DNA from: Alphaproteobacteria bacterium | GTDB taxonomy: Bacteria; Pseudomonadota; Alphaproteobacteria; SP197 | Direction: 5' to 3' | NCBI GenBank assembly: GCA_965228895.1 | Contig: OZ245842.1 | Location: 832,001-896,000 of the forward strand | Length of the DNA stretch: 64,000 bases | Notes under the pieces: model-generated | The model's database searches: none | What the model saw: only the letters and a program-made list of their open reading frames with translations | What the model was told of the DNA's origin: nothing | Program-made: the position numbers and the translations under genes | Part shown: positions 1 to 6,152 of the stretch, piece after piece | Layout: every line of letters starts with the position of its first letter | Numbering within the stretch: the first letter of the stretch is position 1

Positions 1-300
1 TGGTTCGCCGAGATCGTCGCGACCTTCGGCCTCGTCTCAACCATTCTGATGACGCTGCGCTGGCGCCCGGATGCCGTGCCCTATGCGGTCGGCCTCTTCA
101 TCACCGCGGCCTACTGGTTCACGGCCTCGACTTCGTTCGCCAACCCGGCGGTCACCATCGCGCGCTCCTTCACCGACAGCTTCAGCGGCATCGCGCCCGA
201 CCACGTGCCCGCCTTCGTCATCTCCCAGTGCATCGGCGCGGCCATCGCCGTTGCGCTCGCCGCCTGGCTGCTACGCCCGGCGCGGGAGGAGGGTGAATAG
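1..300 (+). CDS. MIP/aquaporin family channel (AqpS-like), 5'-truncated by the window
   Basis: Frame open from base 1 (WFAEIVATFGLV...); second NPA-loop motif STSFANPAVTIAR; hydrophobic helices. Confidence 0.85.
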   Translation, partial: WFAEIVATFGLVSTILMTLRWRPDAVPYAVGLFITAAYWFTASTSFANPAVTIARSFTDSFSGIAPDHVPAFVISQCIGAAIAVALAAWLLRPAREEGE

Positions 301-313
301 TGTGCCGATTGTT

Positions 314-1321
314 CTACTGAGGACAGCCCAGAGCGCGCGCTTCGGTAAGAAGGTCCTCTCTCTTGTAGTAGACTTGGTGATCGTAAGCCTCACCATTCCA
401 ACGCAGAAGCATTTTGCTGCTGCATAGACTGACGTAGCCATCCACGGTCTCATTGATTACATGAAGGCTACTGCCTGGCATAAGGTAGGCCTCCTCCTCT
501 CCGTCCGCATCCAAAATCGGATCGAGAAAGCTCAGTTCCCCGATCTTGCGCCAAGCCGGTGGCTCGCCGTCCTCCGGGGGCTCCACTTCCAGAATGGCTC
601 CACGACAAGCAAAGCTGTCGCAGATCGGCAAGGAGATGATGTAGATGAATACCTCGTCACGGCCATCGCCGTTGACATCATAGGTTCCGACGCGAATGTC
701 ACTCAGCACCGTATCGAAAGGGACGATGTACGTGTCGTATTCCCAGCGAAAATACTCCGTCCACTCGGCGCCATTAAAACGGCAACCCCAAAAAGGCCAA
801 GGTATGTTTGTCATGGTGACGGACTGTTCGGCGCTGGTGATGAACCGCTCGTAGAGGGATGTCGTAAATGTCGTCCGTGTCTTTTCAACAAGACTCCAAT
901 CACACGGCGCGTCCATACTTCGATCTTTGACCACCGGCGAGAAGACGAAGAGGTCGCACAAATCGCCGTCGCATGTCGTGTCGTGATCGACAAGAACCAG
1001 CAAATCCTTGATCTCGTCACCATCAACGTCGGCAAATCCGGCAAAGAAGCTCTTTGCCGTCAAGTCTGGGTTGTTAAAGTGGCGCCCTTCCGGTGACGTT
1101 TGTAGAAACGCCTCGACCAGCGAGAAGTGCTCGCCGAGAAAGGGCACGATCAATATTTCATGGGCCTGATTGTCGTCATCGGCGGCCACGGGATGAGCCA
1201 CCGGAATCAAGGCCGACAAGATCACAAAAGCGACCACACGACGAATGGCCGAACCCCGCCCGACTACGACATCAGTGCCGCCAACGCTGGCCCAAGCGAA
1301 AGAAGATCTTAGTTCGGGCAA
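314..1321 (-). CDS. Exported DxDGDG/Cys-pair repeat protein, paralog 5 (start uncertain)
   Basis: Signal-like hydrophobic stretch; GFADVDGD...CDGDLC and GTYDVNGDG...CDSFAC; C-terminal LRWNGEAY shared with neighbours. Confidence 0.75.
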   Translation of the reverse strand: MPELRSSFAWASVGGTDVVVGRGSAIRRVVAFVILSALIPVAHPVAADDDNQAHEILIVPFLGEHFSLVEAFLQTSPEGRHFNNPDLTAKSFFAGFADVDGDEIKDLLVLVDHDTTCDGDLCDLFVFSPVVKDRSMDAPCDWSLVEKTRTTFTTSLYERFITSAEQSVTMTNIPWPFWGCRFNGAEWTEYFRWEYDTYIVPFDTVLSDIRVGTYDVNGDGRDEVFIYIISLPICDSFACRGAILEVEPPEDGEPPAWRKIGELSFLDPILDADGEEEAYLMPGSSLHVINETVDGYVSLCSSKMLLRWNGEAYDHQVYYKREDLLTEARALGCPQ

Positions 1322-2229
1322 CCGAGCTGCTCCGCCTCGTAATCGGGCACATAGAAGCGGATGTTATACGTCTCGCCGTTCCACCGCAGATAAGAGCCGC
1401 GGCTGCAGAGGCTGGCGTACCCATCTACCGTCTCGTCAATGACCAGCATGGTACGTCCCGGCCAAACATACGCCTCGTTCTCCAGAACGATGTGCATGGC
1501 CGGATCGAGGGAGTTGAGCTCGCCGATCCAGCGCCACGCGGGTTTCGATCCGTCTTCCGACGGCGACAGCTCCAGAATGGCGCCGCCACACTCATCCCGT
1601 CCGCAGATCGGTGGCGACACGACATAGATGAATATCTCGTCTTGGCCGTCGCCGTTAAGGTCGTACGTGCCGATGCGGACGTGGCTGAGCAAGATTTCGT
1701 CCGATTCGAATGTCGTATCGTAAAGTCGCTCGAAGTAGTTGCTCCAGTCCTCGCCCTCAATCTTGGCGGCCAACGCTGAAGGCCAACCCTTCAGCGTAAC
1801 CGTCTGCCCATTTGCGACGACGAAGCGCTCGTAGAGCGATCGTTTGACATCGCTCCGTGATGAGCTGACAAACAACCAATTGCACGGACTGTTGACGGTC
1901 GGGTTTTGCACGTCGGCCGAGAAGACAAAGACGTCACAGCGCTGATCCGTACAGACTGCCTCGTGATCAACCAGAAACACCAGGTTGTCGAGACCATCGC
2001 CGTCGACGTCGCCAAACCCGGCGTAGATGTCGCGTGAGGTCAGGGCGTCGGTTTCGAAGTACTGGCCGAACCACGCTGTCGCCATGTACTCCTCAACAAG
2101 CCAAAGGTACTCGCCGATGTCCGGCATCAGAAGCACCTCCTTGGGAAGCCTGTCGCCTCGCGCATTTGTGGTCTGGGCGAACGCAATCGAGAGGGCGATG
2201 ACGGCAAGCGACGATCTGAGCACGTTCAC
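1309..2229 (-). CDS. Exported DxDGDG/Cys-pair repeat protein, paralog 4
   Basis: Signal peptide; GFGDVDGDG...CTDQRC; GTYDLNGDG...CGRDEC; LRWNGETY. Confidence 0.8.
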   Translation of the reverse strand: MNVLRSSLAVIALSIAFAQTTNARGDRLPKEVLLMPDIGEYLWLVEEYMATAWFGQYFETDALTSRDIYAGFGDVDGDGLDNLVFLVDHEAVCTDQRCDVFVFSADVQNPTVNSPCNWLFVSSSRSDVKRSLYERFVVANGQTVTLKGWPSALAAKIEGEDWSNYFERLYDTTFESDEILLSHVRIGTYDLNGDGQDEIFIYVVSPPICGRDECGGAILELSPSEDGSKPAWRWIGELNSLDPAMHIVLENEAYVWPGRTMLVIDETVDGYASLCSRGSYLRWNGETYNIRFYVPDYEAEQLGCPN

Positions 2230-2292
2230 TCTGCCGTCTCCGTCTGGTTTGGTGGTGCCATGTCATCCGTTGCGTAGGGGCAAGCACAAGAG

Positions 2293-3276
2293 CTAGGGCA
2301 GGGCACAGCCATGATCCGAGAGGTCATAGGTCTCGCCGTTCCAGCTCAAGTGAAATTGCCGCGTGCACAGGCTAGGGTAACCATCGATCACTTTGTTCAG
2401 CACCTTGATGCGGCGCGCTGGATGAGACGAGATGTCGTCGCCGATAATAAGGTTGTCGGCGACGTAAAGGCCGAGCAGGTCGCCGATCCAGCGCCAGCCG
2501 GGTCTCCCGCCTTCCTCGACGGGCAACAGCTCCAGGATCGCGCCGCCGCACTCGTCGAACCCGCACATGGAAGGCGACACCGCATAAATGAAAACTTCGT
2601 CGCGGCCGTCGCCGTTGAGGTCGTAGGTGCCGACGCGAATGTCGCTCAGGCGTATCTCGTCACGCTCGACGGGCGTATCGTAGATCGCCGCGAAGTACTC
2701 TTTCCAGCGCTGCCCATCGAACCGGCCGTCAAAGGCGCCGATCGACAGGTGATGGTAGGGCTGGGTTATGTTGGTCAGGACGACCGTGTGTTCGGCGGTT
2801 TCCACGAACCGCTCAAACATCGATCGTTTGATCGGTGTCCGGGTCCGTTCGGCAGGCAGCCAGTTGCACGGGGCGGCCAGGCTCTGCCTCTGCCCATCGA
2901 CCTTGAAGGTGAAGACGTCGCACATGTCCTCGTCACATGCGATGGGGTGATCGACGGCGATCAGCAACTCGTCGACGCCGTCGCCGTCAAGGTCTGCGAA
3001 GCCGCCAAAGAAGTCCACTTCGATCAACGCACCGGTAGCGAACTCGTCACCGTAGGACGATGTCGGCATGTACTCTTCGACAAGCCAAAGATGCTCGCCG
3101 ATGTCTGGGGTCAGGTAGATGTAGTCGGCCGCGTTCAGATCTCGAGCAAGACCAAGAAGAGCCCATGTGCCGATCATCGCTGCCAGGCTGTGCCTTGCGG
3201 CCTGCCCCAATCGTTCGATGTTACGGCAGTGTCGGCGCCAAGGGGGTCCAGGCGCGTGTTGCTCTACGTGCGGCAT
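2293..3276 (-). CDS. Exported DxDGDG/Cys-pair repeat protein, paralog 3 (start uncertain)
   Basis: GFADLDGDG...CDEDMC; GTYDLNGDG...CGFDEC; LSWNGETY. Confidence 0.78.
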   Translation of the reverse strand: MPHVEQHAPGPPWRRHCRNIERLGQAARHSLAAMIGTWALLGLARDLNAADYIYLTPDIGEHLWLVEEYMPTSSYGDEFATGALIEVDFFGGFADLDGDGVDELLIAVDHPIACDEDMCDVFTFKVDGQRQSLAAPCNWLPAERTRTPIKRSMFERFVETAEHTVVLTNITQPYHHLSIGAFDGRFDGQRWKEYFAAIYDTPVERDEIRLSDIRVGTYDLNGDGRDEVFIYAVSPSMCGFDECGGAILELLPVEEGGRPGWRWIGDLLGLYVADNLIIGDDISSHPARRIKVLNKVIDGYPSLCTRQFHLSWNGETYDLSDHGCALP

Positions 3277-3281
3277 GGAGC

Positions 3282-3755
3282 CTACTCCGGGTCAGGCAGG
3301 ACGTTCTTGTACTTAAAATGAAAGTAATCGGGCCATTTGCGGCGATGCAGCGTGCACGCCATGTCCTCTTGCGGCGTCCCCAAGTGCTCATAGGGCAAGC
3401 GTTCAAGCCGAACGGTTTGCCCGCCGATGGTTACGGAGTTTTCGTCGAACGTCTGTCTGAACGGCCTGCGTTGCTCGTCGTAGAGCCGCCAGTCACAGGG
3501 ATAGTCGATATGTCGGTTCTCGACGACCAGCTCAAACAAGAAGACATCGCAGACGTCTCCATCACAAATCTCGTCGTGATCAAGCAGAATCACAAGATCG
3601 TCGCGTCCATCTTCGTTCGCGTCGACGAAGCCCCCATAAAACTCGAAACCGTCGGGAACGAGAAAGAAGCTCAAAGTGGTTGCCTCTCCACCGTGTACCG
3701 GTATGCCCGCGAGCAGCAGGCTCGCGGTCGCTAGGCGTTGCAGGTGACGGATCAT
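3282..3755 (-). CDS. Half-length paralog 2 of the same family (possibly truncated)
   Basis: Signal peptide and first repeat (GFVDANEDG...CDGDVC, PCDW); stops where the paralogs continue into the second repeat. Confidence 0.65.
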   Translation of the reverse strand: MIRHLQRLATASLLLAGIPVHGGEATTLSFFLVPDGFEFYGGFVDANEDGRDDLVILLDHDEICDGDVCDVFLFELVVENRHIDYPCDWRLYDEQRRPFRQTFDENSVTIGGQTVRLERLPYEHLGTPQEDMACTLHRRKWPDYFHFKYKNVLPDPE

Positions 3756-3794
3756 ATCAGCAAGCTTGGGTCATTGAGTGGCGGAGTCCACGTA

Positions 3795-3870
3795 TTAGCT
3801 CCGCAAGCCCGGGTCGTAGGTCTCGCCGTTCCAGCGCATATGTGGGCTGGGAAGCGCAGCGATTTTCGAC
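3795..3870 (-). pseudogene. Orphan C-terminal fragment of another paralog
   Basis: Minus strand reads MRWNGETYDPGLRS*, matching the conserved C-terminal RWNGExY of the array. Confidence 0.6.
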
Positions 3871-3942
3871 AACGGCACATGGCTTCTTCTTCAACGCCAA
3901 TCGTGCTCGGCTACACGTTGCCGAGCCCACGGCGGATCATTG

Positions 3943-4893
3943 TCAATCATGAGAGTACACGTCGGCGAACGACAAGAACGGACACCCTAAGAGTTTCGCA
4001 TCTTCCTCGCGAACGTGCTCGACGGCATAATTCTCGCCGTTCCAACGCATGATGTTTGTTGCGGCGCACATTGTGACATGTCCGTCGATTGTCTCTTCTG
4101 TGGCAACCAGTAACCTGGCGGGATAGGTCTCCGACAGATCATCGAAAACAAACCTCAAGTTCGGCACGAGGCGCGGCAGTTGGCCAATCGGTCGCCATGT
4201 CGGCAAGGATCCGTCATCGCTGGCGCGTACCTCCAAGATCGCACCGCCGCAATCACCGCGGTGGCAGGTGTCGGGCGAGTCGACATAGACGAAGACCTCC
4301 TCACTGCCGTCGCCGTTAACGTCGAATGCCCCGACACGCACGTCACGCAGGTCGATACGGCCACCGGCAGCGGGTCTTCCGTAAACCTGTTCGACATATG
4401 CGAGTTTGCCGCCGTCGCCTTCCGTCCAAGCCGGAAGGTCGGGCTTGCGCAGTAGAAGACGGTAGACTTTGCCGTCGACAAAGGCGAAACGCTCGAACAT
4501 CGCACGTTCAATGGGAACGCGTAGGCGTTCGACGAACATCCAATCGGTCCGGTTGTCGGCGGGAGTGTCCGTCTCGTCTGAAGCGAAGACGAAGAGGTCG
4601 CAATGGTCGCCATCGCACGCGGCCTCGTGATCGACGACCCAGATCAGGTCTTCTGTGCCGTCCTCACCGAAATCGGCGAACGCCCCGAAGATGTCCGCCC
4701 CCGTCACCGCACCGGTCTTATAGTTCCCGGAGAATCGCGATGACCGCAGGTAGTCGTCCACCAGCAGGTAATGATCGCCTATATACGGCAGCAGGTTGAT
4801 CTCTTGCGGCAGATTGTCGCTATGCGCAGTTGGCATCCGGACGGTCGCCGCCAGGAAGACAAGTGCCAGGCAGACAAGCGTACGGCTGATCAT
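3943..4893 (-). CDS. Exported DxDGDG/Cys-pair repeat protein, paralog 1
   Basis: Signal peptide; AFADFGEDG...CDGDHC; GAFDVNGDG...CHRGDC; MRWNGENY; ATGA overlap with the upstream gene. Confidence 0.8.
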   Translation of the reverse strand: MISRTLVCLALVFLAATVRMPTAHSDNLPQEINLLPYIGDHYLLVDDYLRSSRFSGNYKTGAVTGADIFGAFADFGEDGTEDLIWVVDHEAACDGDHCDLFVFASDETDTPADNRTDWMFVERLRVPIERAMFERFAFVDGKVYRLLLRKPDLPAWTEGDGGKLAYVEQVYGRPAAGGRIDLRDVRVGAFDVNGDGSEEVFVYVDSPDTCHRGDCGGAILEVRASDDGSLPTWRPIGQLPRLVPNLRFVFDDLSETYPARLLVATEETIDGHVTMCAATNIMRWNGENYAVEHVREEDAKLLGCPFLSFADVYSHD

Positions 4894-5870
4894 TCAGATG
4901 GTTCCGTCTCGTTGAGGGCCGGCACGTCATCGCTGGCATAGAGGGGAATGTTCTCGAATCCGATTAGCCGCTCTTCGACTTGTTCAAAAGCCTCTTTCTT
5001 TGTCCGGTCACCTGGAATGTCGTCAATGGGGAATGTCTCTGGGTCAGAAACCCATTCGTCGGCCTCAAGATGCTCGAAGTACTGCTTGACCCGTCCTTGA
5101 CCTTCGCGATGTGCTGCTGCGAGCAGTCCGGCCTCGGTCACTTCGAACGTAACGTCTCCTGCTTCGATCTCTTGTCCGACATATCGCGTCAATCCGTCCC
5201 CTTCAACGTAACCCCACATCTTTGTCAGATATGCCGCGAAGGCGAGGTTCTGAAGTTCGGGGTCTTGGAGAAACTCGTCGCCATCAGGGAAGGGGTGGCC
5301 GTGCCACTGCTCGTCGGCGGTCATGAGCCCGATGTCGAACAACGATCTCGGTAGAAGTTGATATCGTCCTGCGGCGCGTGACGAAGGATTCACCAAGTGC
5401 CATCTGTCGAACGACTTTTCGAAGATGTCGATGGTATCAGCGAACTCGCGCGAAACCGGGAAGAGTTCGTCGGCGCTCCAAATCTCGTTGATCTGCAGTT
5501 TCTGCGGTGTCGGCTTCGTTTGAGGAATGGGTGGTTCTATGTCGGTAGCCGCCTGCTCCGGCTTTCTTGCCGGAATCGGCGGTGTCGCCGCCGCATCGGC
5601 ATCCGCCCTCGCCGCGCGCCGCGTCGTCGCATCCGAGGTCGGAAAGATCCGCCGCGCCTGTCTGGCGAGCGGCGTTTCGCTGTCCGACGCGGCCTCGCGC
5701 TTCAGTTCGTCGGCGAAGGCGAACGCGATGTGTTCGCGCGATCCCATCGGGAACGGGTTGGCCTCGCCGCTGGCGACCATCCGGGTGATGGCGCCGGCGT
5801 CGGCGGCGATGGGGTTACGCGTGGTCTCGGTTTTGCGGTGTTGGCGTCGTGATGTCCGGCGTCGATTCAT
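4890..5870 (-). CDS. Lysozyme-like (muramidase/transglycosylase fold) protein with Arg/Pro-rich N-terminal region
   Basis: E...N...AAGRYQL, FLQDPELQ, RYVGQEI and VTEAGLLAAAH..G motifs typical of lysozyme-like superfamily domains. Confidence 0.65.
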   Translation of the reverse strand: MNRRRTSRRQHRKTETTRNPIAADAGAITRMVASGEANPFPMGSREHIAFAFADELKREAASDSETPLARQARRIFPTSDATTRRAARADADAAATPPIPARKPEQAATDIEPPIPQTKPTPQKLQINEIWSADELFPVSREFADTIDIFEKSFDRWHLVNPSSRAAGRYQLLPRSLFDIGLMTADEQWHGHPFPDGDEFLQDPELQNLAFAAYLTKMWGYVEGDGLTRYVGQEIEAGDVTFEVTEAGLLAAAHREGQGRVKQYFEHLEADEWVSDPETFPIDDIPGDRTKKEAFEQVEERLIGFENIPLYASDDVPALNETEPSE

Positions 5871-6152
5871 GATCGTGGGAACTCCCAGCTAAGGTTGGTT
5901 CCACCTCCCGTCCGTGAAACGTAGCACGAACAAACTGCGCAACCAAGGGTTTAATGTCTTGCCTTGAATTCGCCTGAATTCAGAGTTCGAGCGGCAACAC
6001 CCGCGGGCGCTGCGCTTGGGCCCGGTCAGCTATGCTGCAGTGCAAGAATCCCCTTGCGAATCGGCATGGGTGCTGGTTGTTTAGCGCCGACAGCCGCAGC
6101 TTCCCCAATTCAGCGTTGCGGGCCCCTTGAGGGGACCCGGAGGAGACCACCC

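Follow-up and report, generated by a model that had tools for sequence, protein, structure and literature searches.

What purpose would a lysozyme-like gene serve directly ahead of five divergent copies of a seemingly exported protein? The question is raised by six co-oriented genes, one candidate enzyme and five paralogs, which the list of open reading frames (ORFs) places on the minus strand in the first 5.9 kb of a 64,000-nucleotide stretch of DNA from a marine-type alphaproteobacterium (GenBank assembly GCA_965228895.1, contig OZ245842.1, positions 832,001 to 896,000). This whole stretch is referred to below as the window, and the genes, domains, and vestige given with positions in it are on its minus strand. 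An earlier note, made from the letters alone, had taken the group for a candidate cell wall toxin accompanied by several immunity genes. According to our analysis, the six genes are reasonably likely to form a polymorphic antibacterial toxin-immunity system aimed at peptidoglycan. The argument is built on the fold class of the enzyme, the adjacency of the enzyme and paralog genes, the overlap of stop and start codons, the mosaic structure of the enzyme with its breakpoint, the co-variation of the enzyme with the gene that follows it, and the purifying selection that acts on the paralogs.

The enzyme gene (4890..5870) encodes a protein of 326 residues in which four parts can be delineated: an Arg-rich N terminus (residues 1 to 22; 5805..5870; low confidence), a small helical N-terminal domain (residues 25 to 93; 5592..5798), a Pro-rich disordered linker (residues 94 to 125; 5496..5591), and a catalytic domain resembling lysozymes and lytic transglycosylases (residues 126 to 326; 4893..5495). 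In the AlphaFold model, built from an alignment of 13 sequences, the basic tail (residues 1 to 22) and the linker (residues 96 to 120) are disordered, with predicted local distance difference test (pLDDT) scores below 50, the N-terminal domain consists of four helices (residues 25 to 33, 45 to 61, 67 to 75, and 80 to 93), and the C-terminal domain extends from about residue 126 to residue 320. The succession of an Arg-rich and a Pro-rich segment (PPIPARKP and PPIPQTKP) pointed out in the earlier note is present in the translation. Close homologs are rare, only 12 having been found among 5.8 billion clustered proteins. The basic M-N-R-x-R start recurs across this close family, and the N-terminal domain contains many invariant columns in the family alignment. 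The constant N-terminal domain may be a delivery or targeting module.

By sequence, the enzyme matched no Pfam family at an expectation value (E) of ≤1, and so not the SLT model (PF01464). Comparison of the enzyme with the PDB by sequence, and of a profile of its catalytic domain with the PDB, returned nothing meaningful. The nearest clusters in a protein atlas were viral (score 0.91), and an SLT-bearing cluster appeared only at a score of 0.89. By structure, a VIA-align search of 48,161 PDB representatives with the C-terminal domain retrieved the lytic transglycosylases MltC (Z 8.2; root mean square deviation 3.8; 132 residues) and MltE (Z 8.0; 130 residues) and phiKZ gp144 (Z 7.2; 153 residues), followed by MltF, Cj0843, destabilase, the phi6 lysin, and Slt70. 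All of the top ten rows were lysozyme-superfamily enzymes or T4-lysozyme fusions. When the Foldseek matches were rechecked with VIA-align, rows 1 to 41 of the 50 displayed were peptidoglycan lytic enzymes throughout, and the top rows of Foldseek itself against the PDB and BFVD were SLT, LT_GEWL, or tail-lysozyme entries. The structural matches also included the Tse3-Tsi3 complex (4luq; Z 4.7) and, at only Z 3.1 to 3.5, chains of pesticin, which belongs with the enzyme to the wider lysozyme superfamily. The assignment of the C-terminal domain to a lysozyme-superfamily fold with a peptidoglycan context is well supported, and the lysozyme-like character claimed from the sequence in the earlier note is borne out by both fold searches.

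The likeness to family 1 lytic transglycosylases (MltE, MltC, and Slt70) and to phiKZ gp144 covers residues 128 to 317 approximately and extends to the order of the conserved residues, an early Glu being followed by a G-x-Y-Q-type motif, which reads GRYQ in the enzyme. Glu151 (E151; codon at 5418-5420) is invariant in the 13 close sequences, and in 51 diverse domains the positions of E151, G168, Y170, Q171, H254, and R255 (numbered as in the full-length protein) show either no variation or at least 90% conservation. By conservation, E151 is the candidate catalytic Glu, and the chemistry of the domain may be that of a hydrolase or of a lytic transglycosylase. The enzyme differs from known lytic transglycosylases in that it lacks a sequence match to Pfam SLT or to a PDB chain, lacks a signal peptide or lipobox, and is encoded by a gene coupled to a partner.

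Beyond the close family, 1,222 representative proteins among 1.84 billion matched the close-family profile at E ≤ 1e-3. Apart from about 10 full-length relatives, these matches have the C-terminal domain alone in common. In a Pfam scan of 50 relatives, mostly the longer ones of 150 listed, PG_binding_1 was found N-terminal to the catalytic domain in 19 (14 of them over the Pfam cut-off), an arrangement also known from gp144, and the catalytic part matched no Pfam family at E ≤ 0.01. Only 4 of 147 representative relatives had an N-terminal hydrophobic segment, the other 143 having none. Two long relatives (P0041 and P0046) combine an N-terminal PG_binding_1 domain, a conserved G-D-T-x-L-A-H...N-P-D-T-G-L-P-E-F-F stretch, long Gly/Ser-rich and Pro-rich regions, and a C-terminal catalytic domain, a layout that suggests extended virion-associated or surface-associated lysins.

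Phage proteins occur among these relatives. Four of 18 scanned relatives matched phrog_27932, described as a baseplate hub subunit and tail lysozyme, a tblastn search with one relative led to 30 phage records, and the domain family also occurs in N4-like virion proteins. Together with the viral clusters nearest to the enzyme in the protein atlas and with a structural match to 7cn7 (Z 5.1), by its entry title a complex of Spackle with the gp5 lysozyme, these observations speak for a phage conflict, in which the enzyme would derive from a virion lysin and the exported array would neutralize incoming phage tail or ejected lysozymes in the way that T4 Spackle acts on the gp5 lysozyme. We hold this explanation to be very unlikely, given that the scanned flanks contained no phage genes here or at seven other loci, that no PADLOC defense model matched any of the six proteins, and that an intact, coupled enzyme gene co-varying with the next gene would be left unexplained. 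The six proteins also had no match in PHROGs at E < 0.05 or in NCBIfam at E < 0.09. A Spackle-like antiphage shield is possible as an additional role of the array.

The first of the five paralogs, p1 (3943..4893; 316 residues), is physically coupled to the enzyme gene. The TGA of the enzyme gene and the ATG of p1 have three bases in common (gaATGAtc in the DNA), so that the ATGA overlap with the first of five co-oriented paralogs described in the earlier note agrees with both the ORF list and the DNA. The other copies are a half-length paralog (3282..3755; 157 residues), p3 (2293..3276; 327 residues as listed), p4 (1309..2229; 306 residues), and p5 (314..1321; 335 residues as listed). The five proteins align over their full length, at 24 to 38% identity to p1, and the invariant columns include a first Asp-rich loop (D74 and D78) and a Cys pair (C93 and C98). 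A second loop of the D-x-N-G-D-G type with its own Cys pair, and a terminal WNGE-x-Y motif, are present in all four full-length copies. The alignment agrees with the shared Asp loops and Cys pairs, the terminal motif missing from the half-length copy, and the strong divergence that had been noticed from the translations. The N-terminal and C-terminal halves of the paralogs are related to each other (hhalign probability 94.7%; E 6e-8), each full-length protein being an internal duplication and the half-length copy a single repeat unit. The likeness of the five is much greater than chance would produce: among the 48,508 ORFs of at least 60 residues in the whole genome, the family profile matched these five only.

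All five paralogs have an N-terminal hydrophobic segment, with 12-residue Kyte-Doolittle maxima of 1.7 to 2.8 versus 1.1 for the enzyme. These values come from a crude hydrophobicity index of our own making and not from a signal-peptide predictor, and they agree with the earlier observation of a signal-like N terminus in the paralogs and its absence from the enzyme. Since long N-terminal extensions precede the hydrophobic segment in p3 and p5, the true starts of these two genes probably lie downstream of those listed. No lipobox was recognized by eye in the paralogs.

The paralogs are related to FG-GAP repeats. The Pfam FG-GAP model matched p3 (23.8 bits versus a cut-off of 22.1), the other four being below the cut-off (E 0.0003 to 0.17) or unmatched; the family profile retrieved only FG-GAP-like repeats from the PDB (6mlt), with 4QTQ absent; and the protein atlas neighbors were clusters of about 160 residues named "VCBS repeat-containing" (score 0.95). 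Judged from these matches and from the loop motifs, the paralogs are FG-GAP-like proteins with calcium-type loops. Pfam and NCBIfam contain no model for the enzyme or for the paralog family as such, in keeping with the description of both as unnamed in the earlier note. The AlphaFold2 model of p1, whose alignment includes three sequences translated from stop to stop and longer by a few residues at the N terminus, is mostly beta (mean pLDDT 81.5), and its structural neighbors are sets of two or three propeller blades, from Nup133 (Z 5.3 to 6.3) and integrin alpha (Z about 5). The full-length paralogs have two repeat units each, and the matches of the model to propellers extend over two or three blades at Z 4 to 6. 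N-acetylglucosamine (GlcNAc)-binding Psathyrella lectins followed at Z 5.0 to 5.2 over 108 to 109 residues, and X-Tfi XAC2610 (4qtq_A) ranked sixth at Z 4.8 over 103 residues, a score that according to the tool can arise by chance. Tsi1 (Z 4.0 to 4.2, likewise within the reach of chance), BLIP-like proteins, and cystatins (Z 3.7 to 4.4) were considered as kin of the paralogs and set aside, these matches being too weak to use.

Such neighbors could also be read in another way, the paralogs being exported helpers or targets. As calcium-dependent, glycan-binding (lectin-like) proteins, they would recruit the enzyme, export it, or activate it, or they would shield the peptidoglycan substrate instead of acting on the enzyme. 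The GlcNAc-binding FG-GAP-type propeller lectins and the integrin alpha chains are in line with this, FG-GAP repeats and calcium-loop motifs are general binding scaffolds, and stop/start coupling suits any stoichiometric partner. It is hard to see, however, why one enzyme should need five divergent helpers, and the comparisons between loci described next also speak against this reading.

The enzyme proved to be a mosaic when its N-terminal domain (residues 31 to 93) and its catalytic domain (residues 126 to 326) were compared separately. The window enzyme is 89% identical to that of the related genome G004 (P0003) in the N-terminal domain and 56% identical in the catalytic domain, and the corresponding values are 90% and 50% for the genome G005 (P0009). 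The relationship is reversed with P0002, at 52% and 73%, respectively. Two enzymes encoded by the same 7.9-kb contig (P0008 and P0010) share 85% identity in the N-terminal domain and 42% in the catalytic domain, and the enzyme of a metagenome contig (L015) is 49% and 69% identical to that of G005 in the two regions. Within the genus, the helical N-terminal domain is 89 to 95% identical versus 49 to 56% for the catalytic part. The same pattern was found in the DNA: identity to G004 and G005 is 72 to 98% from the genes upstream up to about codon 88 of the enzyme gene, drops from 82 to 98% at codons 89 to 103 approximately, remains at 47 to 67% from the Pro-rich linker to the end of the gene, and returns to 90 to 95% in the shared paralogs. 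The recombination breakpoint thus lies inside the linker, between a constant N-terminal part and a variable catalytic cassette. Contigs from two further sequencing runs, possibly of the same species as G004 and G005, break at about positions 5584 and 5616 and continue into replacement sequence of a different length.

The synonymous divergence (dS) is 1.76 for the catalytic part, versus 0.28 for codons 1 to 88 and 0.11 to 0.58 for the paralogs. Because of this high value, the catalytic part is considered to be an old allele that was swapped in rather than a local one that evolves fast. In comparison with the G004 orthologs, the ratio of nonsynonymous to synonymous divergence (dN/dS) is 0.29 for p1, 0.31 for the half-length copy, 0.40 for p3, 0.16 for p4, and 0.18 for p5, versus 0.05 for malate dehydrogenase. 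All five paralogs are under purifying selection.

The gene that follows the enzyme changes together with the catalytic type. The type A enzyme of the window is followed by p1. The type B enzyme of G004 is followed by a separate paralog class, with the p1 ortholog in second position; p1 and this second gene form one orthogroup with a support of 100/100. The first-position class of G004 shares contigs with two other type B enzymes (P0004 and P0006), adjacency having been read only in G004. Behind the type D enzymes of G005 and L015, which differ in their N-terminal domains, come first the half-length copy and next p3, and in both loci the half-length copy overlaps the enzyme stop codon. In the five intact loci that were read, the enzyme stop overlaps the next start ((A/G)TGA) in every case, whatever the class of the paralog. 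The partner class therefore follows the catalytic type and not the constant N-terminal module, and for this reason we judge a helper or target function of the paralogs to be unlikely. The persistence of paralogs beside broken or lost enzyme genes, described below, also fits protection better than assistance. The discordance between modules, the breakpoint in the linker, and the changing next gene match cassette-type domain shuffling against a constant N terminus, as in colicin-type bacteriocins.

The two families are also linked beyond the genus. The enzyme was found in 6 of the 33 genomes of the bacterial family, these six representing two genera (3/3 genomes in each, including that of the window), and in 0 of 27 genomes of three other genera. 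The number of paralogs after the enzyme is five in the window, six in G004, two in G005, and one in G002. Two sister-genus genomes retain an open paralog frame next to a broken enzyme gene, with draft assembly errors as a possible cause of the breaks: in G001, which has one paralog, the enzyme is split over two frames near residues 74 to 85 (L013, G001:C258, 5018-6016), and in G003 a C-terminal remnant of about 70 residues with a stop lies beside the paralog (L014, G003:C47, 11076-11297). In the L015 metagenome contig, the enzyme is followed by a half-length-like copy and a p3-class copy. Scans of public contigs gave one locus in genome contigs and two in metagenome contigs. In the class as a whole, the catalytic domain was found in 10 of 401 sampled genomes. 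At 15 distinct places in nine other genomes, belonging to other alphaproteobacterial families, an ORF matching the paralog profile adjoins the catalytic-domain ORF in 9 cases at E ≤ 1e-5 and in 10 cases at E ≤ 0.01, some of these places having arrays of two to four. The five places that lack a paralog ORF are short loci (1.8 to 3.4 kb) or weak enzyme matches. Apart from a few transposases, the neighborhood of the distant places consists of unrelated housekeeping genes, and phage or secretion genes were not seen among the genes scanned. Insertion-sequence genes interrupt the module at two of these loci: an IstB_IS21 match shares its stretch with a paralog-like ORF at one (L035:6341-6988), and a DDE transposase separates the catalytic-domain ORF from the paralog-like one at the other (L036:7857-8900). 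The enzyme and paralog families travel together. Linkage of the array homologs to hydrolases, whose absence the earlier note would have counted against its proposal, was observed both in the two genera and at 9 to 10 of the 15 distant places.

The distribution bears on a further explanation, according to which the enzyme would be an endogenous wall-remodeling enzyme, an autolysin or space-making lytic transglycosylase, that reaches the periplasm of its own cell by an unrecognized route and is controlled there by dedicated periplasmic regulators. Its chromosomal position is the same in three species, beside housekeeping genes, all of the genes are under purifying selection, and no secretion-system marker was found. 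In Xanthomonas, furthermore, immunity to effectors of the type IV secretion system (T4SS) serves mainly to prevent self-intoxication (PMC10933484). A resident remodeling enzyme would not be expected to have a catalytic domain that is 50 to 56% identical between flanks of about 90% identity, with a sharp breakpoint, or a downstream partner that switches together with the catalytic type. The enzyme is moreover missing from 27 of the 33 genomes of the family and decays to a pseudogene while its partner stays open. We consider this explanation rather unlikely, if less so than the two alternatives discussed above, and prefer the toxin-immunity reading.

Several observations weigh against the toxin-immunity reading. 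The enzyme model is of moderate quality only (mean pLDDT 69.8; 42 to 54 for the other four models), the Foldseek matches are weak (best E 0.12 in the PDB and 4.5e-3 in BFVD, none at ≤0.001), and the fold scores are middling (Z about 8), a Z below 8 being possibly due to a common arrangement according to the tool. None of the known inhibitors is strongly matched by the p1 model, whose best scores (Z 5.3 to 6.3) are to pieces of propellers. The co-variation of enzyme and partner is drawn from six loci in related genomes, supplemented by shared-contig information for two type B cases. The N-terminal domain (residues 20 to 100) was not found on other toxins, a search confined to proteins of 179 to 571 residues with exact word matches to it having returned only five close relatives. 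No orphan toxin fragments were detected in the array (window positions 1 to 6000; E < 0.29), unlike in many Rhs and contact-dependent inhibition loci, and the locus shows no visible sign of mobility, its chromosomal position being shared by three species of the genus. As to export, a signal-like segment is missing from the enzyme, scanning of the neighboring genes revealed none that belongs to a phage or encodes a lysis protein or transporter, and the genome of the window (98.7% complete, one contig) contains no match to VipB/TssC (PF05943) or to VirB4 (PF03135).

The two secretion markers were likewise absent from the other carriers, with PF05943, the only type VI secretion system (T6SS) marker searched, in 0 of 5 genomes (G001, G002, G004, G005, and G080) and VirB4 in 0 of 5. 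Pfam domains associated with T6SS, such as PAAR and VgrG, are missing from the enzyme, and the locus lies neither within nor close to a secretion cluster. Two export routes were considered and not retained. A twin-arginine translocation signal at the Arg-rich start was rejected by eye, no hydrophobic stretch following it (index 1.1). Type I secretion was suggested by a distant cousin in the same genome and is only a lead, nothing tying that system to the enzyme. This second member of the domain family lies outside the window (L041:8933-11131, corresponding to G000:C1:4227932-4230130, minus strand; E 1.7e-9). Its product of 732 residues has an N-terminal lysozyme-like domain followed by four repeats of about 120 residues with (GDPGT)n linkers, and the gene is directly upstream of genes for an ATP-binding cassette exporter (L041:7081-8790) and an HlyD-family protein (L041:5750-7084), a group that looks like a type I secretion operon.

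The layout of the enzyme, with its basic tail, helical domain of 70 residues, linker, and C-terminal lysozyme-like domain, is compatible with that of a colicin. Among the delivery routes we favor a diffusible bacteriocin of the colicin or pesticin type, imported via the constant N-terminal module, because pesticin functions without a signal peptide or lysis gene, because the immunity protein of the X-Tfe/X-Tfi pair guards the producer, and because T6SS and T4SS markers are absent. This step is argued by analogy and is put forward tentatively, its probability being well below even. A conserved I-T-x-M-V stretch resembles a TonB box by eye only.

Pesticin of Yersinia is a colicin-type bacteriocin with an N-terminal uptake part and a lysozyme-fold activity domain that works in the periplasm; it has no signal peptide or lysis gene and mostly stays in the producer, the periplasmic immunity protein Pim being specific for its activity domain (PMC3390615). 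The system resembles the present one in the lack of a signal peptide and in the combination of an N-terminal part with a C-terminal lysozyme-fold domain. The activity domain of the window enzyme is nearer to lytic transglycosylases of glycoside hydrolase family 23 (Z about 8) than to pesticin, the N-terminal part is much smaller, and the locus is chromosomal and has five paralogs instead of one immunity gene. These immunity candidates belong to an FG-GAP-like family unrelated to Pim.

In Xanthomonas, the T4SS effector X-Tfe (XAC2609) is a lysozyme-like protein without a detectable signal peptide, and its exported inhibitor X-Tfi (XAC2610), which has a conserved acidic Ca2+-binding loop and a propeller-like beta fold, guards the wall of the producer itself (PMC10933484). 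Unlike with X-Tfe, VirB4 is absent from the six carriers checked, and the catalytic domain of the window enzyme is located C-terminally, where X-Tfe has its secretion domain. The structural match of p1 to X-Tfi is weak and is not accompanied by a sequence match to 4QTQ, and the paralogs lack a lipobox by eye. In T6SS loci such as the T6SS1 islands of Pantoea agglomerans, a wall effector is followed by an immunity gene with a signal peptide and then by orphan immunity genes, which are explained as left over from rounds of effector replacement (PMC9796082). As in the Tge/Tgi and Tse3/Tsi3 pairs, a putative exported immunity gene is located directly downstream of the enzyme gene, with an ATGA overlap at p1 and signal-like N termini. 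The present locus differs from T6SS loci in the absence of VipB/TssC from six carriers, of a T6SS domain from the enzyme, and of a nearby secretion cluster. No paper that joins FG-GAP to an immunity protein and to a peptidoglycan or lysozyme-like function was found in the open literature.

The array itself records a history of replacement. The earlier note expected a divergent array produced by expansion; five diverged classes were indeed found, and a recent tandem expansion was not, since the paralog orthogroups are older than the species. Between the same flanks, arrays of two, five, and six genes occur, and that of G005 lacks p4 and p5. Its present form looks like the outcome of cassettes inserted one after another and of the loss of whole genes. 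The gap of 188 bp between p1 and the half-length copy (3756-3942) contains an in-frame vestige (3795..3842) that reads H-M-R-W-N-G-E-T-Y-D-P-G-L-R-S-stop. By frame translation and DNA comparison (96% identity over 24 nucleotides to the 3' terminus of p3; E 6e-7), it is what is left of the 3' end of a lost sixth paralog. A variant of the array between the same flanks was observed in a 9-kb contig of another organism (run X8), which lacks p4 and p5 (joint from 292 to 2323), has two p3-like stretches, and carries 732 other letters in place of 3784-5616 (p1 and the catalytic part).

An intact half-length copy is also found in G004, G005, and L015, in each case immediately ahead of a p3-class gene; on account of this fixed place and of its dN/dS of 0.31, the half-length copy is considered to be a conserved gene rather than a fragment. 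The p3 orthogroup spans the window, G004, G005, P0024, and further metagenome proteins. Of the loci with a half-length or a p3-class gene, all four have both side by side (window 2293-3755, L001:12828-14290, L011:4294-5753, and L015:1077-2595), at most 6 nucleotides apart in the window. The two may form a two-gene unit or a split three-repeat protein.

The operon is flanked on one side by a divergent aldehyde dehydrogenase gene and then a malate dehydrogenase gene, and on the other by a convergent gene for a channel of the major intrinsic protein family. Its G+C content is 55 to 60% (62% in one 500-bp bin) versus 64 to 67% in the upstream genes. No promoter-like sites were found, and the two terminator-like sites are both within genes and fewer than in shuffled sequence.

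Taken as a toxin-immunity system, the locus would function as follows. The enzyme would combine a constant basic tail and a helical module of about 70 residues, connected by the Pro-rich linker, with an exchangeable domain of the lysozyme or lytic transglycosylase type, which would cut cell wall glycan strands on reaching a periplasm. The gene overlapping the enzyme stop, p1 in the window, would encode the cognate immunity protein, exported to bind and block the catalytic type in question (type A for p1). The remaining four paralogs (the half-length copy, p3, p4, and p5) would have been retained from earlier or foreign catalytic types as orphan immunity genes, and would protect against relatives that still make these types. 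If the enzyme is a diffusible bacteriocin, a second task of the immunity proteins would be to keep enzyme that leaks out from harming the cell that made it. The enzymatic activity and toxicity of the enzyme, the periplasmic location of the paralogs, and inhibition by direct binding are inferred.

With the same reserve as applies to the delivery route, the window may hold the type locus of an unrecognized class of diffusible lysozyme bacteriocins in the Alphaproteobacteria, independent of secretion systems and accompanied by type-specific periplasmic immunity proteins with a calcium-loop half-propeller. If this is true, a two-family module located beside unrelated genes in distant lineages marks a widespread, unannotated system of cell wall warfare, and cassette-type toxin-immunity evolution in bacteria without a detected T6SS or T4SS marker would imply an unknown route of delivery or uptake. 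Two nameless families, a lysozyme-like domain with more than 1,200 representatives that mostly lack an export signal and a group of FG-GAP-like exported proteins, gain a testable function. At least three catalytic types with matched partners provide a natural panel for the specificity of proteinaceous lysozyme inhibitors, and similar islets in marine and host-associated alphaproteobacteria become annotatable.

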